From a virus (taxonomy: Duplodnaviria; Heunggongvirae; Uroviricota; Caudoviricetes): DNA of 33,799 nt. The notes under the pieces were generated by a model that ran no database searches, was not told where the DNA came from, and saw only the letters and a program-made list of their open reading frames with translations. How positions within the stretch are numbered: position 1 is the stretch's first letter; each line of letters starts with the position of its first letter. Positions 14,147 to 33,745 of the stretch are shown piece by piece. The stretch lies in the IMG/VR virus record IMGVR_UViG_2537561934_000004; one strand, written 5' to 3'. The position numbers and the translations under genes are program-made.

Positions 14147-14342
14147 GTCCTGCTGCTCATCATGGTTTGTGAGCAGTCAGTTTGCGGGAGGTGCGGGAAA
14201 ATCTGGGGTTATGCTATTTGAGTACTGGAGAAAGAAAGTGGAAGGAAGATAAAACGGGATTCATACACCGTTAAATACCGGTTTAAAAATCCCGTGGCGC
14301 GTTTTAAAAAATCTGTGCAGCTGATTTTATGCCTGATTCTGT
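14147..14342. promoter_or_regulatory. G-I intergenic region: predicted late promoter (P_I) and candidate central strong gyrase site
   Basis: 196-bp non-coding gap, the largest in the late region, about 18 kb from the left end, where Mu carries its central gyrase site between G and I. No motif was confirmed. Confidence 0.4.
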
Positions 14343-14813
14343 TTATTGCCTCAGAGCGGCGCTGACGCGTTTTCTGATGGCATCAAAAATTTCCTGTTCC
14401 CCGGTCTTATCCAGCCCCATATAAGGACGCGCAGGAACGCCTGCCGGGCGGGGTGCCATATCGGGTGTACCGCCCCACTGATGAATGGCAGCATAAATTT
14501 TTGGCGAACCAATCAGGGCATAATCCTGTCCATAATCGGTGGTAATACTGCGTGCCAGATCGCCATGCAGGGTAAGAATACTGCCCGGAACAAAACCATG
14601 ATCCTGACGCCATGCCTGCCACGAATCGCTCCATGCTTCCCAGCCTTTCCCTGTATCCGGATCTGCCTGCCGTTCAAATGCCTGTTCCGTGGATGACAGC
14701 AGCGCCGCAGACATCACACGGGGAATGGCGCGGTCACGTGTGACGGTTCCCAGTTCATCCAGCGCAAGCTGAATACGTCGCACATCCACGGCAACGTTCA
14801 TATCAAGACTCAC
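14343..14813 (-). CDS. G: Virion morphogenesis protein (Mu G-like)
   Basis: 156-aa ORF, ATGA-coupled to the upstream gene; size matches Mu G. Confidence 0.8.
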   Translation of the reverse strand: MSLDMNVAVDVRRIQLALDELGTVTRDRAIPRVMSAALLSSTEQAFERQADPDTGKGWEAWSDSWQAWRQDHGFVPGSILTLHGDLARSITTDYGQDYALIGSPKIYAAIHQWGGTPDMAPRPAGVPARPYMGLDKTGEQEIFDAIRKRVSAALRQ

Positions 14814-17648: not shown

Positions 17649-19303
17649 TACCAGCCCCCTCGTTCAAACTGGTGATAATCATCAAAATCATCGTTATCAA
17701 CATCATCACCACGGTGGCGTGGTGGTAGCGGACGAACGCTGTCCTCGTCGATAACAAAACCATTCATATAAGACGCCCTGACAGCCATACAGAGCGCCAC
17801 GGCAAAGTCGCCATGTCGTCGGCCTTTACCACCTTCATCTTTTGTGCGCCCCTTATCAATCTGCGGAATACCTTTGTCCACCTTGATGTGGAGCAGGTCA
17901 TCAAGTGTGGTCTGGTGCCGGGCAATCGTGATGTTCTGCGCCTCAAACTCGCCTTTCAGTTTGGGCATCCACTCCTGATACCAGGATGCGGTCAGATTCA
18001 CACAGTCGATCATCTCCGGGCCATAAATCAGACGGGCGGCTTCTGCCAGATAACCGCCGTTACCGGTGGCATCAAATGCAGCGCCGGTAAAACGGGGCAA
18101 ACGGGACAGAATGAATAAAAGGATTTGTCGCTGCTGGTCATAGGTCACATTACGCAGCTCCACGCGGAAACATTCGCGTTTGCGTAAGTCAGGCGTGATG
18201 GCAAGCGGCACAAACACCGTCAGGTCGCCACGGCGTGCAAAGTCTTCGCCCAGTACGTGTTTATTGAGCGGCGACAGCGCATCGAGCAACGGGAGCAGCT
18301 CCTGTTCACACCAGTCCTGAACGATGCCGTGGCGCATTTGTGGTGTCAGCGATTCAAAATCGTCCGGGGCTTCAAAACGCAGAACCGGGATATCCCGCGC
18401 GGGTGTCATGGCAGCTTCAATCAGCACGCGTGACAGATAAGCGCCCCCGGATTTTTTAGGAATGCAGCCGTATTCCTCGTCGGCGCTCTCTTTATTCGGC
18501 GCATTCCGGTACAGGCCATCACGCCAGGCTTTTTCCGCTTCCGGCGACCACGGCTGATTCGTGACGTAACAGATACGCCGGTACAACCCGTCAGCGATGG
18601 CATCATCCAGCGTGATGCGGTGAACGCTGTAATCCTTGCGCCCCTCGCGCGCATCCTGAATGTACTGGTTAAACAGGTTATCGACGCCGTTATGTGTCGA
18701 TATGATGCGCACGCTGGCACCCCACATGTTTAGTGCAAAGGCCGCTTTCAGCAGTTCGTCCAGGGCTTCATGGAATGCCGCCTCATCAATCACCACGTCC
18801 CCCTGCAAACCACGCAGGTTAGACGGACGGCTTGACAGCGCCTGTATCTTAAATCCGCTGTTCGGAAAGCGGATCATGTAGGTGAGGATTTCTTCTTTTT
18901 TGTCGCTGTCCCAGAAGGTCTGCTCCCAGACGTCAGCCTTTGCCAGCTGGTTAAAGGCGCGGGCAAACAGGGCACAGGCGGCGATGTATTCCAGCGCCAT
19001 TTCCTGACGGGAACCCACATAAAAGACGTTGCGACCACCGCGACGCTTCGGCTTTGCGGCCGTCATGACATTGCGGCCCGCTTCAGCCCATGTCAGACCG
19101 GTACGACGGGATTTTTCAGCGATGCAAATCTGGCTTTCATCCTCAAACCAGCGGCGCTGATAGCCCAGAAAAACCGGTTCATTGCGGGGCTGTGCTTCCC
19201 CGATATCGGTCACGATATTCACGCCGAGCAGTCCGGCTTCCTCACGCAGGTTGATTTTGCGGGGCGCATGAAGGGCTTTAAGATTGTTTTCTCTGGTGTT
19301 CAT
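17648..19303 (-). CDS. Terminase large subunit
   Basis: ORF-track frame 17648..19495, started here at the internal ATG 19303 (MNTRENNLK...), just downstream of the small-subunit stop (19311), giving 552 aa. The upstream 64 codons overlap the preceding gene and look non-coding. Confidence 0.85.
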   Translation of the reverse strand: MNTRENNLKALHAPRKINLREEAGLLGVNIVTDIGEAQPRNEPVFLGYQRRWFEDESQICIAEKSRRTGLTWAEAGRNVMTAAKPKRRGGRNVFYVGSRQEMALEYIAACALFARAFNQLAKADVWEQTFWDSDKKEEILTYMIRFPNSGFKIQALSSRPSNLRGLQGDVVIDEAAFHEALDELLKAAFALNMWGASVRIISTHNGVDNLFNQYIQDAREGRKDYSVHRITLDDAIADGLYRRICYVTNQPWSPEAEKAWRDGLYRNAPNKESADEEYGCIPKKSGGAYLSRVLIEAAMTPARDIPVLRFEAPDDFESLTPQMRHGIVQDWCEQELLPLLDALSPLNKHVLGEDFARRGDLTVFVPLAITPDLRKRECFRVELRNVTYDQQRQILLFILSRLPRFTGAAFDATGNGGYLAEAARLIYGPEMIDCVNLTASWYQEWMPKLKGEFEAQNITIARHQTTLDDLLHIKVDKGIPQIDKGRTKDEGGKGRRHGDFAVALCMAVRASYMNGFVIDEDSVRPLPPRHRGDDVDNDDFDDYHQFERGGW

Positions 19304-19310
19304 AACCCTC

Positions 19311-19901
19311 TCATGCCTTACCCAGCAGCACATCACGGATACGCTGCTCCAGCTCTTCGCTGATGCCATCCTGCCCGCGCAGTTCTTCACTGACGGCGTT
19401 TGCCGCTTCTTCTGCGAATGCCTGGCGGATTTCTTTCTCGCGCCGGTGGCTGGACATTGCCGTGGATTCCAGACGCTGTGCCGCCAGCATGGCATTTTTC
19501 AGCAGGTCAATATCCACGTCAGATTCCGGGTTTTCGATTTGCCGCATCATGGCCTTAAAAAGCTGGCTGCGGGCCATTTCCAGAATCAGCTTTGTGGTTT
19601 CTCCCATTGGCTTGTCGCCAAGTTCTGCGGTCAGTGCTGACGTCATTTCACGCATCTGTCGCAGGTTATGGCCTACCTGCTCGACGTTCGTCGCGTAACG
19701 GTTCAGACCGGAACGGGAGAGTTTCATCTCATCCGGCAGGCCTGCGTCTTCAATCAGTGCGTTAATTTCTTCCAGAATGCGGGCCTGTGGGATCGCTTTA
19801 TCACGCAGCATTTCATGCAGCGTTTTACGTACGTTTTCCGGCAGTAAATCCACTTTTGAAGCCCGGCCCCGTGTTTTCCTGTCCATCACGCCTCCTGTCA
19901 T
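19311..19901 (-). CDS. Terminase small subunit-like protein (Mu gp27 / D-like)
   Basis: 196-aa basic/acidic ORF immediately upstream of the large terminase subunit. Confidence 0.7.
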   Translation of the reverse strand: MTGGVMDRKTRGRASKVDLLPENVRKTLHEMLRDKAIPQARILEEINALIEDAGLPDEMKLSRSGLNRYATNVEQVGHNLRQMREMTSALTAELGDKPMGETTKLILEMARSQLFKAMMRQIENPESDVDIDLLKNAMLAAQRLESTAMSSHRREKEIRQAFAEEAANAVSEELRGQDGISEELEQRIRDVLLGKA

Positions 19902-20188
19902 GCACGGGGACGAGGACGCTTGACACCGGCAACGCGGGCACGACCTTCTGCCACATCCTGACCCCGGGAAGTCAGCGTTACGACATAAAAGCCGCGCAGG
20001 TTTTCCACGGTGACCAGTTGCTGCTCTGCCAGCCAGTCAATCTGGCCGCGAACCACATCGCGGGAAACGTTGTGTCCGTATGCATCCAGACAGTCCTGAA
20101 GGATGGATTCGTTGGCTTCGTTATTGCAGTCCATCAGGGAACGCAGGATGACCAGACGACGGTCTTCGGTCAGAATATCGTTAATCAT
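19898..20188 (-). CDS. Small protein (Mu gp26-like)
   Basis: 96-aa ORF, ATGA-coupled to the small terminase gene. Confidence 0.5.
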   Translation of the reverse strand: MINDILTEDRRLVILRSLMDCNNEANESILQDCLDAYGHNVSRDVVRGQIDWLAEQQLVTVENLRGFYVVTLTSRGQDVAEGRARVAGVKRPRPRA

Positions 20189-20484
20189 GAATTACTCCGG
20201 TTTACTGCGTTTTCAAGCAGCAGCTCCAGTTGATGGGAAAATGACTGCACCCGCTGGGACAGCACCCGGATATCACCGGACAGCTCTGCAATTCGCAGGC
20301 GCATTTCGTGTACATCTTCTGTGCCGGGGATGCTGGCGTAGCGGGTTTCCATTTCGGTCATCCGGTTTTCAAGACGCTCCACACGCTCGGTGCTGGCAAA
20401 ACTACGACGCATCGCCCAGACGGCCCCACCGGCCACAACAGGCAACAGGTAAGGCCATAACGCTAAAACTGAAATCAAATCCAT
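20185..20484 (-). CDS. N-terminally membrane-anchored coiled-coil protein (Mu gp25-like; candidate endolysin-release factor)
   Basis: Hydrophobic N-terminus (LISVLALWPYLLPVVAGGAVWA) followed by a predicted coiled coil. Likely start is the ATG at 20484, which abuts the upstream stop. Confidence 0.55.
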   Translation of the reverse strand: MDLISVLALWPYLLPVVAGGAVWAMRRSFASTERVERLENRMTEMETRYASIPGTEDVHEMRLRIAELSGDIRVLSQRVQSFSHQLELLLENAVNRSNS

Positions 20485-20678
20485 TATTCTGCTCCACGGC
20501 ACCAGTGGCAGTAGTTCGCCATCGGCTGCTGTCTCAGCACATCAGGCCGCAGCTCACGACCGCAACCGGCACACAATACAGGCGGGTCATACGCCGCCGG
20601 GCGGGGAATATCACGGGTATCCCCCTGCCAGAGTTCAGCGAGCAGCAGCGCCAGCGCCCGGTTCTGGTCTTCGTTCAT
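20484..20678 (-). CDS. TraR/DksA-type C4 zinc-finger protein
   Basis: 64-aa ORF with CAGCGRE...N17...CHWCRG (CxxC-N17-CxxC). Confidence 0.6.
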   Translation of the reverse strand: MNEDQNRALALLLAELWQGDTRDIPRPAAYDPPVLCAGCGRELRPDVLRQQPMANYCHWCRGAE

Positions 20679-20976
20679 AAATTTCTTTCCTTCGGGTCTC
20701 CTGTTCCCGGACTGATGCCTTGTCGCGGTTGCACTGCCCGAGCGCCATCAACAGGTCAGCATTCCAGAGAAGGGATGCTCCCCACGTCAGGGGCTGTGGC
20801 ATGGGCGGAACGGGCGTTGCTTCCGTCAGTTCTGCATCAGTTTCGGGCTGGAGCACCACCGATGGCACGGGTGCGTTTTTCGAGTTCCCGCAACCTGTCA
20901 GCAGCAACGGCAGGCACAGGACGAGTGCTGCAATTGTCACCGGTAATGGCGGTTGTAATTTTTTGTTTTGCATCAT
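20635..20976 (-). CDS. o-spanin lipoprotein (Rz1-like), overlapped with the i-spanin gene
   Basis: Internal ATG at 20976 in the +1 frame of the Rz-like gene; signal peptide with lipobox LLLTGC followed by a Pro-rich segment (PVPSVVLQPETDAELTEATPVPPMPQP). Confidence 0.6.
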   Translation of the reverse strand: MMQNKKLQPPLPVTIAALVLCLPLLLTGCGNSKNAPVPSVVLQPETDAELTEATPVPPMPQPLTWGASLLWNADLLMALGQCNRDKASVREQETRRKEIYERRPEPGAGAAAR

Positions 20977-21223
20977 GATGTTCTGTCTCGTCTGCCAGCC
21001 GTGCGGCACGATTTGCGGCACGGATAGCGGAAAATACCTGCATCGTCTGTTCCTGACCGTGTAACAACCATTCAGCAGTGTGGCGGGCCTGTTGCTCCGT
21101 CTGTAATTCACGGCGCAGCGTCTGGTTATCGTGGCGGGTGCTGTCCAGCCTGTGCCACAACACCCCGGACAGAACGGCGGCAAACACGGCAGCCAGCAGT
21201 AAACTTTTACTGGCGAAGGTCAT
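20837..21223 (-). CDS. i-spanin (Rz-like)
   Basis: 128-aa ORF with an N-terminal transmembrane helix (LLLAAVFAAVLSGVLW) and a charged predicted coiled coil; immediately downstream of the endolysin. Confidence 0.65.
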   Translation of the reverse strand: MTFASKSLLLAAVFAAVLSGVLWHRLDSTRHDNQTLRRELQTEQQARHTAEWLLHGQEQTMQVFSAIRAANRAARLADETEHHDAKQKITTAITGDNCSTRPVPAVAADRLRELEKRTRAIGGAPARN

Positions 21224-21725
21224 CCGCCCCCCTGATATTCCAGATAGCCATTTCCACTTCGCGACGGTTCATCAGTCCTTTCCATTTATGGCCTGCGGCA
21301 AACACCCAGCGGGCCATCTGGTCACGCGCTCCGGCGTAATCACCGGCATTGAGTTTTTTCAGCAGCGTTGATTTACTGAATGCGGTAACACCGGTGTTGA
21401 AAATAAACGTTGCCAGCGCCGTTTTCTGATATGGCGTCAGCGGCACCCTGACAAGACGATCGATTGCCGCATAAACCGGTTTTAAATCACTGTCGAGAAG
21501 AGCCATACACTCCGCATGGCTGTAACGGCGCATTTCGATATCCGGCCCGGTATGTCCCACACAGACCGTAAGCACACCGGCAATATCGCGGTAAGGCATA
21601 TAAGCGATATTTTCCAGATGGATCAGAGACTGACGGGTCATTTCCTGATAACCACCCACACCGCCACCGGCAATCGTTGCCGCCAGCAGTGCGGCTTTCA
21701 GTTTTTTTGGTATCCCCGCCATCAT
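21207..21725 (-). CDS. lys: Endolysin (lysozyme) with N-terminal signal-anchor-release (SAR) domain
   Basis: 172-aa ORF; N-terminus KKLKAALLAATIAGGGVGGY is a weakly hydrophobic Gly/Ala-rich helix typical of SAR endolysins; first gene after C, as Mu lys. Confidence 0.8.
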   Translation of the reverse strand: MMAGIPKKLKAALLAATIAGGGVGGYQEMTRQSLIHLENIAYMPYRDIAGVLTVCVGHTGPDIEMRRYSHAECMALLDSDLKPVYAAIDRLVRVPLTPYQKTALATFIFNTGVTAFSKSTLLKKLNAGDYAGARDQMARWVFAAGHKWKGLMNRREVEMAIWNIRGADDLRQ

Positions 21726-21796
21726 GCTTCCCTGAAAAAATGCGCTGATGGCAGTCTAAAAAATCAGATGGCAGGTGCGGGATTATGGTGACAGGA

Positions 21797-21823
21797 AATA
21801 ACCGGCAGGATGCCGGTTATTTT
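21797..21823 (-). terminator. Hairpin overlapping the C stop codon (possible middle-transcript terminator)
   Basis: AAATAACCGGCA-GGA-TGCCGGTTATTT, an 11-12-bp perfect inverted repeat spanning the C stop, with U-rich flanks. Confidence 0.35.
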
Positions 21824-22239
21824 GGGCTTTCAGGTGAGAACAGATCAGGCTGATGACGTCGTGTATGCAGCTTTCTCTGGCGGGCAATAATCTGGTAGAT
21901 CTGCGGCTGGGACAGGCGATACTGGCGACGCAGTTCTTCCATGTTACGACCATTGAACTGGCAGTAAAGCAAATCGTCGCGTAACGCGGTCAGGATCGTA
22001 TCGCCGCAGGGGATGTAAAACTGCCGCCCGCCCAGAAAACAGGACAGGGCAACGGCCTGTTTACGGGCAAGCTCACGGGGATTGCTGACGTTCTGGCGTT
22101 TCAGTTCGTTTTCCAGAATATCAATCAGATCAACCACTGAACGGGGCCAGCGTGATTCCAGTTCCGGGGCCGGGATGTTATCAATATGCCCGATTAACTG
22201 GCGAATTGCCGGATCGTGTTCAAATAAATCATGCTGCAT
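21817..22239 (-). CDS. C: Late transcription activator C (Mor/C family)
   Basis: 140-aa ORF, same size as Mu C; its C-terminal half (GGRQFYIPCGDTILTALRDDLLYCQFNGRN...LSQPQIYQIIARQRK) parallels Mor at 23032..23421 (GGGQVYIPRGQVLDSLIRDLRIWNDFNGRN...GVTFNTVYKAIRRMR). Confidence 0.85.
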   Translation of the reverse strand: MQHDLFEHDPAIRQLIGHIDNIPAPELESRWPRSVVDLIDILENELKRQNVSNPRELARKQAVALSCFLGGRQFYIPCGDTILTALRDDLLYCQFNGRNMEELRRQYRLSQPQIYQIIARQRKLHTRRHQPDLFSPESPK

Positions 22240-22251
22240 ATTTTCCCCCGG

Positions 22252-22371
22252 TTAACAGACAAAAAGATACACCACGGCACTGATGGTTATCAGAACCACA
22301 AGGGCAATCACTTTTATCGCATTAATCAGCGTGGACGGCCCGAAACATTCATCACTGAATTTTCTGTACAT
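22252..22371 (-). CDS. Small hydrophobic protein (39 aa)
   Basis: Hand-found ORF between the membrane-protein gene and C: MYRKFSDECFGPSTLINAIKVIALVVLITISAVVYLFVC, with one predicted transmembrane helix and a weak Shine-Dalgarno. Below the ORF-track size cutoff. Confidence 0.4.
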   Translation of the reverse strand: MYRKFSDECFGPSTLINAIKVIALVVLITISAVVYLFVC

Positions 22372-22380
22372 GGTGCCCCT

Positions 22381-22743
22381 TTACCCGAACAGACGAGCGC
22401 GAAAACGAAAGGAGAGCCAGAACGTCAGCAATCCGGCCAGCGCCCAGATGACATACTCAGGACCCGTTTTCAGTTGAGACGTTGCCATCACGGCTAATCC
22501 CAGCCCGGACAGCCCCCCCAGCCAGGTCAGAGGCCAGACGAACCGGGCAAAATGTTCAGGCACCCGGCAGCTCATTATCAGCGCATCCAGATAATCACCG
22601 GCAACACATAAAGCAACACTGAAAACCGAGGCACAGCAAAACATCAGCGCGCGCCAGCCACAAAACAGACTTATCCACAATAACAGCGCCAGTAATACCA
22701 CCGATAAAAAATCAGGCCACTGACGAGCAGAACGCTCAGACAT
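22381..22743 (-). CDS. Multi-pass membrane protein (middle operon; holin-like candidate)
   Basis: Started at ATG 22743 (MSERSARQWPDFLSVVLLALLLW...), which has a GGAG Shine-Dalgarno 8 nt upstream; three or more hydrophobic segments. The ORF-track start at 22794 lacks an obvious ribosome-binding site. Confidence 0.55.
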   Translation of the reverse strand: MSERSARQWPDFLSVVLLALLLWISLFCGWRALMFCCASVFSVALCVAGDYLDALIMSCRVPEHFARFVWPLTWLGGLSGLGLAVMATSQLKTGPEYVIWALAGLLTFWLSFRFRARLFG

Positions 22744-22954
22744 AATGTTTCTCCCTGTAAAGCAGGCAATGATGAAGAATTTCCGGCATATCAACTGACT
22801 GCCAGCCTTTCATGTAATAACTGCCGTGGGTGCCATCATGACCGGTATAGTCGCGGGGCGCAGGACGTGGCCCACCGGCGACACGGCGCAAAACCTCCTG
22901 ACGCAGCCGCTCACGTCTGCCAAGATGAAAGGATGCATTCCAGCCTTTACCCAT
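22736..22954 (-). CDS. Hypothetical protein (72 aa), first ORF after the early terminator
   Basis: ORF-track entry with a GGGGAA Shine-Dalgarno; basic, no recognised motif. Coding status uncertain. Confidence 0.4.
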   Translation of the reverse strand: MGKGWNASFHLGRRERLRQEVLRRVAGGPRPAPRDYTGHDGTHGSYYMKGWQSVDMPEILHHCLLYREKHYV

Positions 22955-23001
22955 GATGATTTTCCCCGGTACGGTTATTCATCACAGGATATTGAGGACG
23001 T

Positions 23002-23024
23002 AAAAAAAGCCGGATTAACCGGCT
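23002..23024 (-). terminator. Rho-independent terminator immediately after mor (end of early transcript)
   Basis: Minus strand reads AGCCGG-TTAAT-CCGGCT followed by TTTTTTT, starting 8 nt after the Mor stop; about 9.3 kb from the left end. Confidence 0.6.
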
Positions 23025-23031
23025 TTACTGT

Positions 23032-23421
23032 TTACAGAAGTGAGGGCTGGTACTGGCGGTATTTCAGCCGTCGCATCCGGCGAATGGCCTTGTAAACCGT
23101 ATTGAAAGTGACACCATAACGGGTGGTCAGTTCGCTGACGTTGCGACCGTTAAAATCATTCCAGATACGCAAATCCCGAATCAGCGAGTCCAGAACCTGA
23201 CCGCGTGGAATGTAGACCTGACCGCCGCCCAGATGCTTACAGATAGCCACAACAATCTCCAGTGAATGGGCAGGATCAACACCCAGCCGGGACAATTCCC
23301 CGCGTAGTAAATCGTTCAGCTCCGCCAGCAGTGCCGGAAAGCGTGACGTATCCTCTGCGGGATTGTCAAGATGTGCCAGGATGGTGTCATCCTGCAAATC
23401 ACCAAATAAATCTTCCGTCAT
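23032..23421 (-). CDS. mor: Middle operon regulator Mor (Mor/C family activator)
   Basis: 129-aa ORF (Mu Mor is 129 aa) with a C-terminal region paralleling C; last gene before the early terminator. Confidence 0.85.
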   Translation of the reverse strand: MTEDLFGDLQDDTILAHLDNPAEDTSRFPALLAELNDLLRGELSRLGVDPAHSLEIVVAICKHLGGGQVYIPRGQVLDSLIRDLRIWNDFNGRNVSELTTRYGVTFNTVYKAIRRMRRLKYRQYQPSLL

Positions 23422-23969
23422 TGTGCCATCCTCCGCGTCTTTCTGGCATGGGCATAAGCCGCCGTCATGGCATCATAGCCGCGCAGTTCACGACCGGACG
23501 GACTGACCGGCAATGGAAGCCCGTGACGGGAAAAGGCTTCACGAATACAGCGGATGTGCCACTGCTTGAGTGTTTCGAGGACTGTCAGCAGCGTGTCGCC
23601 ATGACACCACGCCAGTGTGGAAACGCCCTGTCCGCCGTTGCGTTTCGCGGTCAGGCGCTGAACATATTTATCCAGCGCCACATCACCGCCATCGGTAATA
23701 AAACCGTCTTCTGCCATCTGCTGCCAGACTTTGTACACCTTCTCGCGGGGCGTGACATGTTCCTTAAAGCGGCGACGTGGATGTTTATTCAGCTTCTTAA
23801 AGCCGCGTTCTTTCATTGCATCGAGCGTCTGTTCCAGTTGCGTAACCGTCAGCTCGCGGCAACTGGTTTTGCCCGTTTTCTGCATCAGAAAGGCGCGGTA
23901 AGTGTCATCGTCGAGTTGTAGCTCCCGACGGGCGACATGGATTAATTTAATAAGCGATGTGCGATTCAT
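23418..23969 (-). CDS. gemA: GemA-like protein (Mu gp16-like)
   Basis: Frame 23418..24137, started at internal ATG 23969 (MNRTSLIKLIHVARRELQLDDDTYRAFL...), which has a GAGGTG Shine-Dalgarno; ATGA-coupled to mor. Confidence 0.7.
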   Translation of the reverse strand: MNRTSLIKLIHVARRELQLDDDTYRAFLMQKTGKTSCRELTVTQLEQTLDAMKERGFKKLNKHPRRRFKEHVTPREKVYKVWQQMAEDGFITDGGDVALDKYVQRLTAKRNGGQGVSTLAWCHGDTLLTVLETLKQWHIRCIREAFSRHGLPLPVSPSGRELRGYDAMTAAYAHARKTRRMAQ

Positions 23970-23999
23970 TTGCTCACCTCTCATATTAAGGAATGAGAT

Positions 24000-24416
24000 A
24001 TGAAAATTGATTATGACGAGATAGCCAGAATATTTGATGTTTTTCTGGAGGCCGACACCGCATTCATTCGACTGGAAGATGTCGGCTGGGAGCGTTCTCA
24101 GCGGCACAGCGACAGCCATCAGAAGCTGGTTTTCCATCTTCTGTTGCTGGTTGAAAATGGTTTTATCAGCAACAGATATCTGGAAACAGGCACCGCAAAA
24201 AGCATTGGTCTCACCCCAACAAGCCTCGGATATTCATATTCAGGCACCAGTGTCAGACTTACACAAGATGGTCATGATTTTGCGAAAGCACTACATCAAA
24301 AACCCATTCTTGAGCGCATAAAACAGGACCTTGCCGACGCCCCGATGACGCTCGTAACAGACGTCGGCAAACAGTGGTTAACCTCGTTTCTTAAAAAGAA
24401 ACTCGGGATTGAATAG
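24000..24416 (+). CDS. Hypothetical protein (138 aa) on the strand opposite to the early operon
   Basis: ATG at 24000 preceded by AAGGAA 8 nt upstream; no internal stops. Its 3' end converges on and overlaps the 24378..24689 gene by 39 nt. No family recognised. Confidence 0.6.
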   Translation: MKIDYDEIARIFDVFLEADTAFIRLEDVGWERSQRHSDSHQKLVFHLLLLVENGFISNRYLETGTAKSIGLTPTSLGYSYSGTSVRLTQDGHDFAKALHQKPILERIKQDLADAPMTLVTDVGKQWLTSFLKKKLGIE

Positions 24417-24689
24417 TTCCCGGTTCATACGTTGCAGCACATCAAGGGCGGCGACAGCCGCCACTTTATCGTTACCATCAGCAATAGTGCGGAGATTTTC
24501 AATAATCCAGTGAGGACTCAGTGACTCAGCAATAATGCCAAACCGGTACGCCATGACTTCATCAATAGCTTTTTCATGAGACGGCTCATATACAAAATTC
24601 ACAAAGTCATGCACTTCTTTTTTCGGCAAACCACCGGCAATCAGCAGGGCGGCAAGCTCTTCTGATTTTGAAAATACACCATTATTCAT
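24378..24689 (-). CDS. Hypothetical early protein (about 103 aa)
   Basis: The ORF-track start at 24704 is a GTG; the first ATG is 24689 (MNNGVFSKSEELAALLIAGG...), preceded by GAAGGTGAG and abutting the upstream stop. Confidence 0.5.
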   Translation of the reverse strand: MNNGVFSKSEELAALLIAGGLPKKEVHDFVNFVYEPSHEKAIDEVMAYRFGIIAESLSPHWIIENLRTIADGNDKVAAVAALDVLQRMNRELFNPEFLFKKRG

Positions 24690-24690
24690 A

Positions 24691-25449
24691 TCACTCACCT
24701 TCACAATTCATGCACGCCGTGTCATCGCCCATATCGCAGTGGTTGCATTTCTGCCCACCACAATGAGGGCACTCTTTCAGATATTCAGGGTTTTCATTAC
24801 CGCAGGTCGGGCATTCCTGTTTCACCGTGGTGAATGTCCCCAGCCACGAATACGAATTTTCACCGACTGTCTTTTTCCCCGTTATTTCTGAATCAGAACT
24901 AATACAGTGTTTTTCAACCCATGCCACACGTGCTGAATTCAGGTGGCATCTGGCCAATTTGCTTTCGTTTCTGTAATGTTTGCTGTCCCGGTTAAATGGC
25001 AATTTCTCATTCAGCCCTGCTGAGATAAAGTCCGCATGTAATTGTTCTAATGCGGCTTCACTGTCTGCACCGGTTGATTCAAAATAATCGTAAGCATTGG
25101 CACATAATCCGGCAGCCCGGGTAAATACATCATCGCCCGTCTCCATTGCCCCATTCTTTAACCATCGGTTGTAGGCTGTATAAAAACTATAAAGTTGCTT
25201 TCTGATACAGGTAGTGGCAGTTCCGCCATTAACTGACGCTGGCGTAACATAGCCAGCTCTGCATAAAGCAGAACGAAGTATATCCAGAACCTGCCAGGCA
25301 TCTTCTCCTTCAATCACGCTACAGTTTTTGTACACCAGGACGTCCCGGCCACAACTTTTATCAATACCCCAGTCTTCAAATTTCACAACCAGCCTCCTGC
25401 ACCACACCCGGTGCTGATGAAAAATCAATGATGAGATAACGCAGTACAT
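24691..25449 (-). CDS. Hypothetical early protein with a C-terminal four-CxxC cluster
   Basis: C-terminus CPTCGNENPEYLKECPHCGGQKCNHCDMGDDTACMNCEGE. The ATG at 25449 overlaps the upstream gene by 74 nt; a GTG at 25386 has an AGGAGG 6 nt upstream and is the more likely start (231 aa). Confidence 0.6.
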   Translation of the reverse strand: MYCVISSLIFHQHRVWCRRLVVKFEDWGIDKSCGRDVLVYKNCSVIEGEDAWQVLDILRSALCRAGYVTPASVNGGTATTCIRKQLYSFYTAYNRWLKNGAMETGDDVFTRAAGLCANAYDYFESTGADSEAALEQLHADFISAGLNEKLPFNRDSKHYRNESKLARCHLNSARVAWVEKHCISSDSEITGKKTVGENSYSWLGTFTTVKQECPTCGNENPEYLKECPHCGGQKCNHCDMGDDTACMNCEGE

Positions 25450-25915
25450 GGTCGGTGATATTCCAGGCGCTGGAACTGCAAATAAACCGCCCCAGCCGGA
25501 TATCGATATAAGCCATCACAAAACGGGGCATTCCCTGTTTGCACATCTCGTCATCCACTTCTGCAACGATGTGAACGGACTCACAGGTCAGTACGCCTGT
25601 CGCAAACTCTTTTGCCAGTGCGGGGATGGTATTACCTTCCACCCAGGGTAATGAGCGACGCCAGTTGCACCACACCGCATCATCAACAGCAGGCTGCTCA
25701 GTTGCGTTTCGTCTTACCGGCGGCGTCTGACGCGGGCGCGGAACGTCATAAAATCCGTTGCATTCGGTGAGCACTCCGGCATCAACCGCATCACGCAGGA
25801 AATACACCATTGCGGAGGGTGGCATCTGCATTTTTTCAGCCAGAACCCCGCAGGTCAGGCGTCCGTAAGCCCGTAATAATGTGCTGACACCATTCAGAAT
25901 TTTTGCATCAACCAT
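25376..25915 (-). CDS. Hypothetical early protein with a possible N-terminal winged-helix domain
   Basis: 179-aa ORF with GAGGAA Shine-Dalgarno; the helix-turn-helix call on residues ~1-55 (LAEKMQMPPSAMVYFLRDAVDAGVL) is a visual impression only; Cys/Trp-rich C-terminal domain of unknown function. Confidence 0.6.
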   Translation of the reverse strand: MVDAKILNGVSTLLRAYGRLTCGVLAEKMQMPPSAMVYFLRDAVDAGVLTECNGFYDVPRPRQTPPVRRNATEQPAVDDAVWCNWRRSLPWVEGNTIPALAKEFATGVLTCESVHIVAEVDDEMCKQGMPRFVMAYIDIRLGRFICSSSAWNITDHVLRYLIIDFSSAPGVVQEAGCEI

Positions 25916-26013
25916 GTTTTATTCCTCAGTAATCTGTTTCAGGCGCGAGCAATCCCCTGACGCATCGCGCCATAATTAAAAGAATGTGAATTAATTAAAT
26001 ATTAATGGTGGTA

Positions 26014-26538
26014 TTAAATACCGGCTTCCTGTTCAAACGGAATAATGGAAAAATCTTCAATTCCCGATTTAACCGTAATTCCGGCAACACCTGCGACGGC
26101 TTTTGGTTCCAGTAAAATCGCCTCCTTGTTGATTTCCTGCTTCGTGCGAATAAAGCGTTGCAGGCCAAGACGCTCCAGCGTTTCCATCACTGCATCCATA
26201 CCACGAATACTTACTGATGGTGGACGGACCCGCCACGATACATCACCGGTGACAAGATTCGCCGTCTTCACTTTGCCGCCGTTCGTCAGTTCGTCGCGGT
26301 TCGCTTCACACCATCCCTGAACGCCTTTTGAAAGGGTTTCAATATCGGTTTTAATCGGTGCAATCCGGGCCGCAAATTTCTCCGTAATTTCCGCGATGGC
26401 ATCATTCATTTCCGTTTCCAGACGTGATGCTTCGCGCTGTAAATCCCCGATGCGTTTAATATCGGTAATCACCGCATCGCGGTTTTGTGGCACATAAGCC
26501 GCTGCGGCACTCTTGATACGTTTTGCTGGTTTAGCCAT
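26014..26538 (-). CDS. gam: Host-nuclease inhibitor Gam (DNA end-binding)
   Basis: 174-aa ORF of Mu Gam length in the Mu gam position; the sequence MAKPAKRIKSAAAAYVPQNRD... matches Mu Gam as I recall it. Confidence 0.9.
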   Translation of the reverse strand: MAKPAKRIKSAAAAYVPQNRDAVITDIKRIGDLQREASRLETEMNDAIAEITEKFAARIAPIKTDIETLSKGVQGWCEANRDELTNGGKVKTANLVTGDVSWRVRPPSVSIRGMDAVMETLERLGLQRFIRTKQEINKEAILLEPKAVAGVAGITVKSGIEDFSIIPFEQEAGI

Positions 26539-26557
26539 AAATTAAAGCTCCTGTTAA

Positions 26558-26857
26558 TTAATATCCGCTGTATACAATGCTGGATACAGCTCGATTGCTT
26601 AATTCCATCTTTCGGGCAATGACATGAATATCCAGCCCTTCTTTATAAAGTTCACGACATAAATATTTGTCGTGTTCACTGATTCGGTATACACACAATG
26701 ATATTCCGTGCCTTCTGGCATGTGCCCGGAGGGCGGTTGTGGCGACTTTCAGTTTTTCCGCCATTTCTTCAACGGTCATTTTCCCGACGTTGGCTTCGAT
26801 AAATTCCCGGTCTTCGCGTGACCAGCGCTTACGATTACACTTCATGTCAGCCACCAT
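26558..26857 (-). CDS. Small early protein with two helix-turn-helix-like segments
   Basis: 99-aa ORF between B and gam; segments WSREDREFIEANVGKMTVEEMAEKLKV and ISEHDKYLCRELYKEGLDIHVIARKMELS look like HTH repeats. Confidence 0.55.
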   Translation of the reverse strand: MVADMKCNRKRWSREDREFIEANVGKMTVEEMAEKLKVATTALRAHARRHGISLCVYRISEHDKYLCRELYKEGLDIHVIARKMELSNRAVSSIVYSGY

Positions 26858-27277
26858 TCAGTACAGCAGAGGCTCGCGCAGTGATGCCGGAATATGCCGC
26901 AGCGATAACTGAACCGCTTTCAGGGCAAGCGAGGAATAACAGCAGCGCGCCCAGCCTTTTGCCATTAACCGGTAATCGCGCCAGATACGCTGCCACATTT
27001 CACGGGCCTCAGGGTCTGATGCGCAGATGTATTCCCGGTCCATGACGTACTCCCATAAATCCACGTTGAACGCACCGCCAAATGCAATGGCGCGGGATAT
27101 GCTTTCGCCGCAATAACGCGCACAAATGCTGTAATGGTCGAAAGCAATCAGGTAAGTCTTTTCACCACAATCATCAACTTTCCGGGCGCAAATAAACTCG
27201 CGTAATTCACCACCGTTGTTATTGCGTTCCTGAATTCGGATTAATGCCTGAATTTCATTTCGGATTTTGACGTTCAT
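26858..27277 (-). CDS. Hypothetical early protein (139 aa)
   Basis: ORF abutting the downstream gene within the B-gam block; no recognised motif. Confidence 0.55.
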   Translation of the reverse strand: MNVKIRNEIQALIRIQERNNNGGELREFICARKVDDCGEKTYLIAFDHYSICARYCGESISRAIAFGGAFNVDLWEYVMDREYICASDPEAREMWQRIWRDYRLMAKGWARCCYSSLALKAVQLSLRHIPASLREPLLY

Positions 27278-27297
27278 TGTCAGCGTTCCTTTGCGAA

Positions 27298-27567
27298 TTA
27301 ATGTCTGGCTGTATTCGGGTTATAGCTGAATAATTCCCCCTCGGCTTCCAGCCCAAGCTCCCTGGCTGATTTCAACAACTCCTCGGTCGCTTTTTTAATG
27401 ATTTCAGGAGCCATGCTCTTGATGATGCCTGCCATTACATCATGTGGCCCGGTCTGGTCCTCAGGTGAGGATTCTTCCAGTCGCACATTCATATTTACGG
27501 CAAAACCTCCATTTTCCTGAAACTCAATATTTCTTGTATTGTTAAATTCAAAGATTACTTTTGCCAT
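27298..27567 (-). CDS. Hypothetical early protein (89 aa), acidic
   Basis: ORF in the B-gam block; no recognised motif. Confidence 0.55.
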   Translation of the reverse strand: MAKVIFEFNNTRNIEFQENGGFAVNMNVRLEESSPEDQTGPHDVMAGIIKSMAPEIIKKATEELLKSARELGLEAEGELFSYNPNTARH

Positions 27568-27587
27568 TTTTCTTCTCCTTATTGATT

Positions 27588-27833
27588 CTAAATAACTGCG
27601 CTGGCTTTTACCTTCGCGCCTTTTACCTGCTTAAAGAAAACTGCGCTGCACCACGGACAACATGTCAGGGAATCCCAAATTTCCTTTTCGTGTGAGCATT
27701 GCGTCATAATCTGTTCACCGCATCCGGGGCATTTATATGTCGTCAGCGGCACCCCGTGGCACTGACAGTGTTTAACCCATTCAATATATTTTTCAGCTTT
27801 AATACACATCGTTATCTCCAGATAATCTGACAA
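27588..27833 (-). CDS. Cys-rich putative zinc-binding small protein
   Basis: CxC and CPGC/CCPWC motifs (HCQCHG...KCPGCGEQ...CCPWC). Likely start is ATG 27809 (MCIKAEK...), which avoids overlap with the upstream gene. Confidence 0.55.
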
Positions 27834-28039
27834 CCATTAAGACGGGCCGTCCATACAGAACGGGCCACCCCGGACTTATGCTCCATAATCCTGACCGCGT
27901 TTTTTACCAGTTCCACCGGTGGGTAAGTGATTTCAAGAATCGGACGCGCCACGCCGAGATATGATTCATTTACATGACTCCCGCGCGCCTGTAACCAGTT
28001 CTGCGCATCCGTTGCCATTTTTATATTTCGGGCCATCAT
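27812..28039 (-). CDS. Kil-like small protein (first gene after B)
   Basis: 75-aa ORF at the position Mu kil occupies; assignment is by position and size only. Confidence 0.5.
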
Positions 28040-28054
28040 AATTTCTTCTCCTTC

Positions 28055-28993
28055 TTAATTACGCAGCAGCGTTGAAATATCAACGTCCAGGTCTAATTCA
28101 CGGAAAGCCTGACGCAGATAATCTTCGTTAACACGCTCACCTTTACCGTGAGCCGTCATGGCGGCAAGGCGAAGTGAATGATTCAGAATGCGAAGCGCAC
28201 CTGGTTTCTGCGCAATCTGCTGTAATAACTCCAGTTCATTTTCGCCGTTAATCTGCCAGGCATCCGCAATAGCTTTTACATCGGCTTTTTTTGTTTTATT
28301 AATTGCAGTGCGCTTTGCAATACGGGAAAACAGACGGGCAAATTCAACCGTTCTGTTACCCCCCGTCATATTTGAATAAACCCGGTGATTTCCCATCAGC
28401 ACAAGGCCAGTGCGGGTTGATTCCTGTAACAGGCGGAGTTCTTCCAGAACTTCGGCACCAAGATGATCAGCTTCGTCGATGATAACCAGCCCCTGTGTAC
28501 CTTCAAGGCGACGTCGCAGGGCACGGGAAAGTGGCCCTTTACGGCGTGGTGCGTCATTCATTCCCAGCTCAAACGCCAGTTCAGTAAGACATTCCAGAAC
28601 ACTGGCGCAGGATGGCGTAATGGTGATCATCCAGACATTGTTATTGGTGCGGCGATATTCACGGGCCGCTTCGGTTTTGCCCACACCAGGATTGCCACAT
28701 ACAACAGCAATACTTTCAGTCAGGCTGGCAAAACGCATACTTGTCCAGATTTGTTTTACCGTCTGCGTTTCCACAAAGCGGGGCGGTTCAGGTAGTTCTG
28801 CAACTGCATGATATTTTTCCAGCCAGCGTTGCAGCATTTGTGAAACACGCTCGTTATCCCCGTTGTACTTATCATTGATAAAACTACTGATAGTTCCGGT
28901 AGAAAGTCCGCTCTCAAGAGCAATTTGTTTAAAGGTGGTTTCTTCATTTTCTACAAGCGTGCGCAGTCCTGCGCGAATATCGGAAATATTCAT
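28055..28993 (-). CDS. B: Transposition target-DNA activator MuB (AAA+ ATPase)
   Basis: 312-aa ORF (Mu B is 312 aa) with Walker A GNPGVGKT and Walker B-like IIDEAD; immediately downstream of the transposase. Confidence 0.9.
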   Translation of the reverse strand: MNISDIRAGLRTLVENEETTFKQIALESGLSTGTISSFINDKYNGDNERVSQMLQRWLEKYHAVAELPEPPRFVETQTVKQIWTSMRFASLTESIAVVCGNPGVGKTEAAREYRRTNNNVWMITITPSCASVLECLTELAFELGMNDAPRRKGPLSRALRRRLEGTQGLVIIDEADHLGAEVLEELRLLQESTRTGLVLMGNHRVYSNMTGGNRTVEFARLFSRIAKRTAINKTKKADVKAIADAWQINGENELELLQQIAQKPGALRILNHSLRLAAMTAHGKGERVNEDYLRQAFRELDLDVDISTLLRN

Positions 28994-29031
28994 CTGAATA
29001 ACCTCGTAATTAAATTTTGTTTAAACGTTAA

Positions 29032-31020
29032 TTAAATGGCTTTTTTACGTCTGTTCTGTTCCAGAATATCCAGCGAATGATTCAGATATTCATCACGCTC
29101 AGTTTCGTATTCATCATCACGCTCCTGATTCTTCACCCGTTCCGTATTACCGGAAGGCCGGAAAATGCCGACAATTCGTGATTCTGGTGCTTCAGGTTCG
29201 GCTATCTGCGGCAGCAGCTCTGCCACTTCCAGTGCATCCATTTGTTTCTGTGCCTTAATCGCTGCTTTCGTCGCAGATTTCAGTTGTTTCTGGCGGCGGC
29301 GATATTCACGGCCTGCCGCAGCATCATTAAACGCAACAGGTGCCAGACATTCCGCTTCACAGATAAACCGACCGTCCAGGGTGTAACAATAAACCGTGCT
29401 GTGTAGCTGCTGCGGATCAAACCTGACCACAACTTTTTTCACGCCGGCATTCATTAATGCCATGTTGTAATAAACGTTTTTCGCGCCTTTAAGGGAGCCG
29501 CCAACTTTAAGCGTAAACTCGCCTTTGCGTGAAACGTTCACCGCCTCGGCAGGCAGTAACAGCATCCGTTTTTGTTCTTCGGTTGGCTTACGCACAATCG
29601 TTCTGGCGTATTCACGCTCGAAAACATCATCAAACGAGAGTTTGCCCCCGCACATTTCTGTTTCACGGCCTGTTCTGGCATTGAACATCGCCACACCTTC
29701 GGCAAGGTTTTTCAGAAACAGCTCTGCATCAACAGCGCGGTTGCCATAGTTATCAGGTTTTGCCTGCGGATTTGGCCCCGTATATGCGCCAGCCAGTGCC
29801 GGATGCTTATCAACGTATTCCTCAAGCCCACCAACACCGAAAGCACGTTCAACAGGTTTTGCCTGGCCCCAGCCTTTACCGGCAACAACGCTTGTCCAGT
29901 GCATTTTCGCACCCATCAGTAAAAACAATCCCTTTGGATCGTCTTCTTTCACCTTAAAGCGGTAGCGATTGGGCGCGCCTCCCGTCAGCCATTTATTCGC
30001 AGCACCACGGGTGTTATCAATGGTGATGTGAAAATCCTCCGGGATACCGTAGCGAGTCACAACATCCATGAACGAGAGGCGAATTGAATCAATGTTCTCG
30101 CTCACATCGCAGCGCCAGCCCAGAATTTTTCGGGTTTTCACATCCTGCCAGAACCATGTTTTCGGGCGGATCACATCACCGTTAAACCAGCGTACAAAGA
30201 CGTTATGCAGATAACCGTCGCCGTTGATCCACTGCATGGCGTCCAGGTGTTCCACAGTTCGCTGCTGTGCCGGTATCAGATGCATCAGTGCATGTTCACC
30301 TTCACGACAGGCAACAACCATTGCCTCGTCCAGTTGCTGAATCCGGCGAAAGGCCGTGGCACGGGAGGGAATACTCCAGCCATGCTCGCGGGCTGCCAGT
30401 TCCAGACGCTCATAACATTTGCGGAAGGCGGGTTTTTCCGGTCGCAGATAATCTGCAATCAGAAACTGCCAGGCATCCTCGTCAAATTCACTTTTGTGAA
30501 CATTGCGACGGGATGCACCACGTCCATCAACAAGTGCAGCCGCCCAGTCAGGCTTCGCAAACTTCTGTACCTGGTAATACTTGTCCCGCAAAGTGGATGC
30601 GCTGACCTGGTAATGCCCTGCAACGGTCGCAAAAGCCGTTTTCGTTGAAATCCCCTGGTTCAGCATTTCGTCTGCAGCCTGAACCGCAGGCAACCATTTT
30701 TCAGCAAGTCTGCGCTGGGAATCGCTGGCTTTATCCCATTTGCTCCACAGCACCTCACGATCATAATCATGGGCTTCCAGCGTGGGGCGGGCGATTTCAA
30801 AACGGCCCAGGCTTGTTTCAATTCTCCCTTGTTGCAACAGAATTTCAGCACGTAATGCGACAGGGAATGATTTGATATTGAATTCAAATGATACACCTTT
30901 AGTCCCTGCAACCTGTCTGAACTCCCAGCCTTCTCTTTGTGCCTTACGTGTAATGTTAGTGGCTTGCTTTGGTAAACCTGCCAAACCGAGCAACTCTTTT
31001 GCTGTATACCATTCTTTCAT
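29032..31020 (-). CDS. A: DDE transposase MuA
   Basis: 662-aa ORF. Acidic residues at D268 (WINGDGY), D335 (HITIDNTRG) and E391 (KPVERAF) sit one residue before MuA D269/D336/E392. The C-terminus ends QNRRKKAI, the MuA tail recognised by ClpX. Confidence 0.95.
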
Positions 31021-31027
31021 AGCGCAC

Positions 31028-31249
31028 CTAGTATCGAGACGGCCAAATATCTTGCGGTGTCATTCCCAGTGCATCTGCAATGATTTTCTCCGCTTTCGGA
31101 TATCTCTTATCCAAAGCATTTTTTAATGTTGAAGACGAAAGATGATTAGATCTTCCCAATTCAGCTAGTGACATATTGCGTTTTCGTAGCTCTGCAACGA
31201 TGTCAGCTCTGTGCCAATCTTGGCGGTTAGTTCTTTTATTCATATGCAT
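31028..31249 (-). CDS. ner: Ner-like DNA-binding regulator
   Basis: 73-aa ORF between the operator region and the transposase; ends ...[14 protein letters not shown], resembling the Ner/Nlp family C-terminus as I recall it. Confidence 0.8.
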
Positions 31250-31434
31250 TTCATGTAATCCTTTCAGATTCCCCCGCGAGCTACGCTATAAAGTAGCTCA
31301 CGGCATATCGTGCAATGTAGTGTGGAATCACTTTCAAATCAATAGTGATTTGAAAGGATTTGCCATGATTTCATATAACAGCATGATTTTTATATGAATT
31401 TATTTTGTCTCTATTGAAATCACTAGGATTTTAA
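31250..31434. promoter_or_regulatory. Divergent early/repressor promoter and operator region (expected to overlap the transposition enhancer)
   Basis: 185-bp gap between divergent ner and c, about 0.95 kb from the left end. Contains an 11-bp perfect inverted repeat CTTTCAAATCA-ATAG-TGATTTGAAAG at 31331..31356 and AT-rich tracts. Confidence 0.6.
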
Positions 31435-31959
31435 ATGATGTCTTTTGAAATCAAAGAATGGTTTAATGCGAAAGAGCTGGAAGGGATGCCTGGTGTACCA
31501 AAGTTGGCGACTAACATTACCAGGAAAGCTGTGGCGGAAGATTGGGTAAAACGTCAGCGTCACGGTGGGAAAGGTGTCGCTTATGAGTATCACATCAACA
31601 GTCTGCCAGAAGAAACACGCAGGGCCATTAAAGGAGCCTCACTTTCTGATAAACCAGTGCATACATCAATCGCCCATACAGTTGATGAGAGGCTAATTTA
31701 TGCAATGAGCTTCTTAACACCAGATGAGCAGGCCGCAGCTGTGGAGATCATTCGTGTGGCAGGGATTAAAGGACTTATGCCTACAATTGTCAGTAAAGAT
31801 AAGGCATTAGAGGCATTAGGGATTACTGTGGAGCAACAGAAAACCCTGCAAACTCTTCAGGCATTACCACCGGAAAAAGTGAGAGAGATTTTGTCTCAGT
31901 ATGAAGGCAAAGAACATAATTTCCCTGTAAGAGAAAACGATGTAAAGAAAGCTGTATAA
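31435..31959 (+). CDS. c: Mu-type repressor (c)
   Basis: 174-aa ORF divergent from ner. Its N-terminus ([61 protein letters not shown]) parallels the transposase N-terminus ([60 protein letters not shown]). Confidence 0.8.
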   Translation: MMSFEIKEWFNAKELEGMPGVPKLATNITRKAVAEDWVKRQRHGGKGVAYEYHINSLPEETRRAIKGASLSDKPVHTSIAHTVDERLIYAMSFLTPDEQAAAVEIIRVAGIKGLMPTIVSKDKALEALGITVEQQKTLQTLQALPPEKVREILSQYEGKEHNFPVRENDVKKAV

Positions 31960-32124
31960 CAACCAGGTAATAGCTAAGACATAAACTTCACTCCAGGCAA
32001 TTACATATGTAAGATACCCAAACAGTGATGATTGTTTTTGACACACATCACTTGCTGAAAGCCTGGTTGTTACCGTTTTTGAAGCATTTTTGAAGCTGTA
32101 CTTGAAATGATGCGTGAAGTAATT

Positions 32125-32298
32125 GCTTTTCGTGTCTTTAATGAATCAAAAGCTGTTTCCAACAATCTTTCGCGTTTCAAGATGTAACGGCTAAAATCTG
32201 TCCTACAGGCTTGCAAGCCCCACTAAATCTAATCCCGCCAAATCCCGAATAATCCAATGTCCTCCCGGTTTTTTTCGTACTTCAAGTGAATCAATACA
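32125..32298 (-). repeat. Prophage left end with three MuA-binding repeats (L1, L2, L3)
   Basis: On the minus strand: L1 TGTATTGATTCACTTGAAGTACGAAAAAA (32298..32270), L2 CATCTTGAAACGCGAAAG (32184..32167), L3 TGATTCATTAAAGACACGAAAAGC (32148..32125). All carry the (A/C)CGAAA(A) core and the spacing (about 0-28, 114-131, 150-173 bp from the end) matches Mu attL. Confidence 0.8.
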
Positions 32299-32706
32299 CC
32301 CGATTATATTTCCCGCTACGGGAAGCCAGAAACGATCGACGATTTAAAGCAACATATTTGCCTGGGATTCACTGAACCCGCTTCCCTCAATACCTGGCCG
32401 ATAGCCCGTAGCGATGGACAATTACATGAGGTGAAGTACGGTTTGTCATCCAATAGTGGGGAAACACTGAAACAGCTTTGCCTGAGTGGCAACGGGATTG
32501 CGTGTTTGTCCGACTACATGATCGACAAAGAAATCGCTCGCGGAGAATTGGTGGAGTTAATGGCAGATAAAGTGTTGCCAGTGGAAATGCCATTCAGTGC
32601 CGTCTATTACAGCGACCGTGCGGTAAGTACGCGCATCCGGGCTTTTATCGATTTCCTTAGCGAGCATGTAAAAACAGCTCCCGGAGGAGCTGTCAGAGAG
32701 GCTTAA
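32299..32706 (+). pseudogene. yafC: LysR-type regulator gene (yafC-like) truncated at its 5' end by the prophage
   Basis: The frame translating ...[56 protein letters not shown]... is open from the prophage junction to the stop at 32706. It has no start codon or N-terminal helix-turn-helix; only the C-terminal effector domain remains. Convergent with dkgB as in E. coli. Confidence 0.75.
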
Positions 32707-33506
32707 TCCCATTCAGGAGCCAGACCTTCCGGGCTAACCAGGCGGTCGTTGCAATCCAGTGCGGCGATCGCTTTTTTATCTTCGGCATCAAGCTGTAAAT
32801 TTTGTGCCTTAAGATTACTTTCCAGGTTTTTACGTTTAGTAGAAGAAGGAATTACTGAGTAACCTTCCCCCATAGCCCACGCCAGAATCACTTGTGCCGG
32901 AGTCGCATTGTGTTTAGCTGCGATACGAGCAATAACCTCATCTTTCAGGGCCTTACCATACGCCAGCGTCATATAGGAAGTAATATGGATGCCGTGCTGT
33001 TTAGCCCAGGCAACCACTTTACGGTTTTGCAGATAAGGAGAGAGTTCAATCTGGTTAGTAGCGATGTTTTCAGCACCAACAGCAGCAATCGCTTTTTCCA
33101 TCAACGGGATCGTGAAGTTGGAAATACCGATCTCACGCGTCAGCCCTTGTTTTTTGGCTTCCAGCAGCGCCTGCATAAACTCTTCAACAGAGACTTCATC
33201 GTTTGGTGACGGCCAGTGGATTAGCGTCAGATCAACATAATCGGTACGCAATTTTTGCAGGCTCTCTTTCAGACTTGGGATCAATTTGTCTTTGCTGAGA
33301 TTTTCAATCCAGATTTTAGTGGTGATGTAGAGTTCATGACGTGGCACGCCACTTTCTGCAATCGCCTGACCTACTGCGGCTTCGTTATCATAGATTTGTG
33401 CGGTATCAATTGCGCGATAACCAAGTTCAAGCGCCGTTATCACAGATGAAATAACAACGTCGTCTTTCAGACGGAAAGTACCTAAACCAAATGCAGGGAT
33501 AGCCAT
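32703..33506 (-). CDS. dkgB: Aldo-keto reductase, 2,5-diketo-D-gluconate reductase B
   Basis: 267-aa [21 protein letters not shown]... with aldo-keto reductase motifs ([27 protein letters not shown]); length equals E. coli DkgB. Confidence 0.9.
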
Positions 33507-33668: not shown

Positions 33669-33745
33669 TGGCGGAACGGACGGGACTCGAACCCGCGACC
33701 CCCTGCGTGACAGGCAGGTATTCTAACCGACTGAACTACCGCTCC
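33669..33745 (-). tRNA. aspU: tRNA-Asp (anticodon GUC)
   Basis: Minus strand reads GGAGCGGTAGTTCAGTCGGTTAGAATACCTGCCTGTCACGCAGGGGGTCGCGGGTTCGAGTCCCGTCCGTTCCGCCA (77 nt, encoded CCA), anticodon loop CUGUCAC. The symbol aspU is inferred from adjacency to dkgB; it could be another Asp copy. Confidence 0.9.

Follow-up and report, generated by a model that had tools for sequence, protein, structure and literature searches.

Where exactly does the prophage on this stretch of DNA end, which host gene did it enter, and did its insertion duplicate the target as expected of phage Mu and its relatives? The window, by which we mean the whole stretch of 33,799 nt analysed here (IMG/VR virus record IMGVR_UViG_2537561934_000004), holds most of a prophage and, at its far end, a short piece of bacterial chromosome. 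An initial annotation, made from the sequence alone, had placed a Mu-type left end inside a LysR-type regulator gene next to dkgB, and had predicted a 5-bp duplication at a right junction lying outside the window.

The left phage-host boundary and the interrupted gene

The features on which the argument rests are the following.

1..32298, minus strand: Mu-family (D108-type) prophage, running from the left terminus into the invertible G segment, colinear with D108 32043..1
29032..31020, minus strand: MuA-type DDE transposase of 662 aa with a D108-type N-terminus (open reading frame over D108 gene A)
31028..31249, minus strand: ner, 73 aa, D108-type (open reading frame list and D108 annotation)
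31435..31959, plus strand: c repressor, 174 aa, D108-type (Pfam HTH_Tnp_Mu_1, E = 3e-51; D108 c annotation), pointing to the junction
32127..32143, minus strand: predicted inner left-end MuA-binding site, one mismatch to the consensus YMYNWRAARYRCGAAAR, equivalent to the annotated D108 site 156-172
32272..32288, minus strand: predicted terminal MuA-binding site L1, an exact match to YMYNWRAARYRCGAAAR, equivalent to D108 site 11-27
32297..32298, plus strand: terminal CA, the last phage bases (5'-TG when read on the phage strand), the same terminus as in D108
32299..32303, plus strand: target pentamer CCCGA, left copy of the putative duplication (right copy inferred from the protein P0130, see below)
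32299..32706, plus strand: 3' remnant of yafC, codons 170-304 and stop, encoding the C-terminal part only of the LysR effector-binding domain
32703..33506, minus strand: dkgB, an intact aldo-keto reductase gene (267 aa), convergent with yafC, the two genes sharing 4 bp
33669..33745, minus strand: tRNA-Asp (GTC), from ARAGORN and the K-12 annotation, last gene of the adjacent rRNA operon

The phage-host boundary falls exactly between 32298 and 32299, where the initial annotation had put it. The sequence across it reads ...CTTCAAGTGAATCAATACA/CCCGATTATATTTCC... (the slash marks the junction; also written GTGAATCAATACA/CCCGATTATATTTCC, and in a longer form ...TTTTTTTCGTACTTCAAGTGAATCAATACA/CCCGATTATATTTCCCGCTACGGG...), and the phage side, when reverse-complemented, is the canonical left terminus of Mu and D108, TGTATTGATTCACTTGAAGTACGAAAAAAACC. 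A megablast comparison of window 29000-32298 with phage records aligned position 1 of D108 (GQ357916) with base 32298. On the host side, a 301-nt query spanning the junction was compared with 5,426 complete E. coli genomes; the alignment begins at query base 150, that is, window 32299, in nearly all of 5415 genomes, while none of the 5,426 covers both halves of the query. Phage and host alignments abut, with no base shared and none left over. In addition, all 10 of the other D108-type prophage loci that we examined stop at the same nucleotide, 339 nt past the stop codon of c, and run on into 8 different host sequences, which identifies 32298 as the true phage end rather than a chance break in similarity. 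The identical left junction is also found in an independent assembly, IMGVR_UViG_2534681761_000009, which stops at the same base as the window, and a chimeric assembly is thereby excluded. This second record differs from the window by 2 SNPs in 8 kb, at positions 28532 and 30966 (the latter within the N-terminal coding region of the transposase), which points to a single lysogen lineage sampled as two closely related isolates.

The interrupted gene is yafC. From 32299 to 33799, the alignment to the K-12 dkgB-yafC region that the initial annotation had called for gives 1501 of 1501 bases identical to E. coli K-12 MG1655, without a mismatch, over yafC nt 508-915, dkgB and tRNA-Asp. Base 32299 is equivalent to nt 508 of yafC, where codon 170 begins, so that the reading frame does resume there, and the 135-aa translation of the remnant is identical to K-12 YafC 170-304 (135/135). 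Orthology and synteny are both upheld: the gene is convergent with dkgB and adjoined by tRNA-Asp, as in K-12, and the window stops just short of the 5S rRNA gene. The identity to K-12 is shared widely: in a sample of 40 evenly spaced rows, 12 complete E. coli genomes (~30%) have the same 1501-nt allele at 100% identity, and its carriers come from humans, poultry, calves, dogs and other sources.

Intact K-12 YafC has Pfam domains HTH_1 at residues 7-64 and LysR_substrate at 89-293. The remnant matches LysR_substrate at profile positions 86-208 only and is devoid of HTH_1; because HTH_1 and a full LysR_substrate domain are not present in one polypeptide, the remnant is a gene fragment and not a functional member of the LysR family, and yafC is inactivated as a full-length LysR regulator. 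The expectation that no intact start codon with an N-terminal HTH would be found for the remnant was borne out: its first in-frame start is a GTG at 32431 (91-aa open reading frame) lacking a spaced Shine-Dalgarno sequence, the remnant has no usable start codon, and an in-frame TGA at 32287-32289 upstream precludes its fusion to any phage open reading frame. The initial annotation had gone further and stated that the insertion removed the N-terminal, DNA-binding half of the regulator. The loss of the HTH from the remnant stands, but the 5' part was not removed; it would be displaced to the other end of the prophage, the split lies at codon 170 of 304, and the displaced part carries ~80 residues of the effector domain in addition to the linker and the HTH (7-64). 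Used as a query, the 91-aa open reading frame returned, among the 24 blocks with the longest contigs, mostly assemblies with fragmented calls for yafC and its neighbours, probably as a result of frameshift errors.

A D108-type prophage and its relatives

Apart from two divergent blocks, the prophage is 96.6-98.3% identical to D108 along 32043..1. The genes c, ner, A (the DDE transposase) and B adjoin the left end, the late region is colinear with Mu, and the Pfam domains HTH_Tnp_Mu_1, HTH_Tnp_Mu_2, DDE_2 and Mu-transpos_C are recorded on a protein identical to the window transposase. D108 (GQ357916 / NC_013594, Muvirus) shows a gene order colinear with the window throughout, carries MuA-binding sites at the same positions, and is 98.4% identical over the left 3.3 kb (c, ner, the A N-terminus and the attL terminus); across the window, the MuA-binding consensus is matched 3 times against 0.33 expected by chance. 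Phage Mu (AF083977 / NC_000929) is ~97-98% identical in the transposase core and late genes and would share the integration chemistry, with TG...CA ends and, probably, a duplication of 5 bp at the target. In the immunity region (c, ner, A N-terminus) it is unlike the window. As D108 aligns over 100% of window 29000-32298 and Mu only over 29000-30832, the region of c, ner and the A N-terminus is D108-type, and so is the immunity group of the prophage. The terminus and its MuA-site matches are in line with the Mu-type left end originally proposed, with the refinement that in its immunity region the phage is of the D108 type and not Mu proper.

The two blocks with little or no similarity to D108, at 23970-24679 and 24863-25392, lie in the early region. 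They hold a 138-aa open reading frame (24000-24416, phrog_585) on the strand opposite to the early operon, a 108-aa open reading frame (phrog_1988) and a 252-aa Cys-rich one (phrog_6418); none of these three has a Pfam match, and the 138-aa protein is found repeatedly in Mu-like prophages (182 collection blocks). At its other extremity, the window begins with 164 nt of the invertible G segment, whose inverted repeat occupies positions 165-205; positions 124-164 match the flank of the other repeat copy of D108 (the S' side), which places G in the orientation opposite to that of the D108 record. No match to D108 was obtained for positions 1-123, and this variable part of the tail fibre is unlike that of D108; the contig may break here because of G inversion or tail-fibre repeats. 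About 4.4 kb of the right end would lie beyond the window, for a full prophage of about 36.7 kb.

The repressor is widespread, with an identical c protein on thousands of contigs, and 40 of the 5426 complete E. coli genomes carry the left end of the window at many loci, including potE, nrdE, ygfK, pduA, ssuA and yehR. Scattered, unrelated flanks of this kind are the signature of non-site-specific transposition, and together with the 8 flanks among 10 relatives they agree with the earlier view that the insertion site was not specifically chosen; integration at many unrelated sites, with no att site and no integrase, is what is expected of the Mu family. The terminal TG...CA of the family is found at the left end, and the right ends of the relatives read ...CTCA or ...TTCA. 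Mu-like prophages in ssuA (E24377A), potE (STEC383) and nrdE (JCKP02) have the same left end and likewise split a host gene, each flanked by an exact 5-bp duplication (TCGGC, TCCGG and CTGAT); their target genes differ from that of the window. For the two closest relatives, GCA_045080665.1 and GCA_012065325.1, both junctions were recovered, again with exact duplications (GGCAA and CCTCG), so that the duplication is exact in all 5 relatives for which both ends are available. Deletion has shortened several D108-type prophages: that of E24377A measures 12.6 kb and retains both ends and the duplication, while others have IS1 in place of A and B, or c-ner abutting tail genes.

The closest relatives share the exact MuA and gp48 proteins of the window and 700/700 nt of window 1..700, and they are informative as to the missing right end. 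Their right terminus, in window orientation, reads TGAGCCGGCTCATGAAAAGCGCGAAAGCG..., unlike Mu and D108; the end itself is TGAGCCGGCTCATG (L064, L065, L067 and L068, about 12166-13656) as opposed to TGAAGCGGCGCACG, the end of Mu and D108. These relatives retain TG/CA but differ in the terminal bases contacted by MuA, and in the interval from gin to the D108 gene 56 homologue no com or mom gene is called.

The right junction and the probable target duplication

Transposition by Mu prefers targets of the form N-Y-(G/C)-R-N (NYSRN), and CCCGA fits this consensus at all three constrained positions. In uninterrupted yafC the pentamer is present once at the target, as ...CGCCTCC CCCGA TTATAT... (...ATCGCCTCC CCCGA TTATAT...). 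A second copy would have to lie at the right junction, where yafC read from its own start would run through CCCGA into the phage end and yield a truncated fusion protein. A homology search with YafC 1-170 joined to the initial residues that the translated right ends of Mu and D108 have in common, followed by a cluster listing, retrieved such a protein, P0130, of 194 aa (NCBI EMU66129.1, EMU67667.1, EMU72337.1 and EMV24280.1; sources include E. coli C-34666). It consists of YafC residues 1-171 followed by a 23-residue tail, EPAHEKRESVSNKTRKYKLSRFN, and it carries A79S relative to K-12 YafC, in a part of yafC that lies outside the window. The right end of the closest relatives, when translated after the host 'GA', gives DEPAHEKRESVSNKTRKYKLSRFN and then a stop, identical to the tail of P0130 at 23/23 residues and with the same stop. 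P0130 therefore requires ...TCC CCC GA/T GAG CCG... where yafC meets the right phage end, the sequence that a 5-bp duplication predicts.

The junction implied by P0130 thus joins yafC, up to and including CCCGA, to the right end of this prophage subtype, oriented as predicted from the window. For the window itself we would expect a right junction of ...ATCGCCTCCCCCGA/TGAGCCGGCTCATG, that is, ...AAATTATCGCCTCC CCCGA TGAGCCGGCTCATGAAAAGCG..., and P0130 would belong to the same lineage; it is very improbable that this subtype inserted a second time, independently, at that base and in that orientation. The several P0130 accessions suggest that several sequenced isolates carry this lysogen. Support for the duplication of CCCGA outside the window, as foreseen in the initial annotation, is accordingly indirect but strong, coming from the P0130 fusion and from the exact duplications in the relatives.

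Direct scans for the right junction gave no match. The predicted junction with the Mu/D108 end TGAAGCGG had 0 exact matches in viral, genome and metagenome contigs, and this is explained by the pattern having assumed TGAAGCGG, while the end of the subtype is TGAGCCGG. The left junction was also absent from the genome and metagenome contig collections in exact scans, which makes the right-junction negatives in those collections uninformative. There were 0 matches to the yafC 5' sequence in viral contigs, and a scan of all Mu right ends in IMG/VR yielded 24 loci, none of them from genome 2534681761. Three predicted fusion proteins, made from K-12 YafC and known right ends, were not found by exact look-up in the protein collection, since the real P0130 differs at A79S and in the tail. 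In IMG/VR sample 3300045125, many contigs have ~55 nt from the right end of Mu, joined through a shared GGTTAAACACC-like linker to unrelated sequences, often ~60 nt from the contig end; the arrangement resembles an engineered library of mini-Mu transposons and not natural prophages.

Based on the family properties, the relatives and the fusion protein, we infer both the transposition mechanism and the duplication, and we consider it very probable that a D108-type Mu-family prophage transposed into E. coli yafC at CCCGA, splitting the gene and duplicating the pentamer. A temperate phage with D108-type immunity would have integrated into the chromosomal gene by MuA-catalysed DDE transposition, with cuts staggered by 5 bp at CCCGA (yafC nt 508-512) and the 3'-CA ends of the phage joined to the target; repair would then have copied CCCGA onto both sides. 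At the left junction this would leave the order c-ner-A, two MuA-binding sites, CA at 32298, CCCGA, yafC 170-304, dkgB and tRNA-Asp, while the yafC 5' part would be found at the far right end, ~36.7 kb off, reading through CCCGA into the phage end to give the 194-aa truncated fusion.

Other histories could produce the same left junction. Mu prophages are known to generate adjacent deletions, and since the right junction lies outside the window and was not recovered as DNA, the insertion might have been followed by a Mu-mediated deletion or rearrangement in which the 5' half of yafC was lost together with any right copy of CCCGA. We regard this as very unlikely, because public genomes encode P0130, in which the yafC 5' part through CCCGA is fused to the same prophage subtype, and because the duplications are clean in 5/5 relatives. 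The perfect match of the host flank to K-12 MG1655 could also point to a laboratory construct, either K-12 lysogenised with D108 or Mu or an engineered Mud element. This is less likely still: ~30% of the complete E. coli genomes match these 1501 nt just as perfectly, the prophage reaches no more than 96.6-98.3% identity to D108, with divergent blocks, and is most closely related to prophages of wild isolates, and P0130 departs from K-12 YafC at residue 79.

A further alternative is that the window represents packaged virion DNA, or an assembly chimera, instead of an integrated prophage. Headful packaging by Mu attaches variable host DNA to both phage ends, and a window that stops inside the G segment could be read in the same way. 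Host tails at the left end of virion DNA are, however, only ~50-150 bp long and heterogeneous, whereas here 1501 bp of one locus follow with 0 mismatches, and neither virion DNA nor a chimera agrees with a second assembly that has the identical junction or with the existence of a matching right-junction product. We consider this the least probable of the three, and hardly credible. Transposition into yafC with duplication of CCCGA is thus the reading that we retain.

Consequences for yafC and its neighbours

The initial annotation had also raised the question of whether the prophage provides an outward promoter for what remains of yafC. A consensus scan between the c stop codon and the junction gave nothing above chance (2 found against 3.9 expected) and does not favour this idea. 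A consensus scan of the 339-nt spacer from the c stop codon to the junction found no terminator, and folding of window 32190-32285 revealed no stable hairpin (z = 0.48). As c faces the junction, the lack of a terminator or hairpin would make low-level read-through into the remnant possible, and such transcripts might run antisense to the convergent dkgB. The fusion of the P0130 type keeps the HTH and the linker helix; it is conceivable, if improbable, that the split yields new products rather than a plain null allele. The 194-aa protein, made from the native yafC promoter, might then act as an effector-blind binder of YafC sites and, separately, c transcripts might act as antisense RNA against dkgB.

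YafC is a transcription factor verified by ChIP-exo; a deletion strain was built for expression profiling and is viable, and the regulator is non-essential (PMC6237786). An independent mobile element also interrupts this dispensable gene in E. coli S171-1 (NZ_CP058725.1, H98), in that case the insertion sequence IS1A rather than a phage.

The insertion is an ordinary, textbook Mu-type event of an already known kind, involving no new mechanism and no new family. It adds little beyond annotation, in that the left boundary is fixed to the base and the disrupted host gene is identified; it does account for two annotation artefacts, the 'partial LysR substrate-binding protein' beside dkgB and the 194-aa 'LysR family protein' found elsewhere in the same lineage. 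Since YafC is non-essential and its gene is split, strains of this lineage are natural yafC mutants, and the locus provides a clean worked example of Mu-type transposition in wild E. coli.
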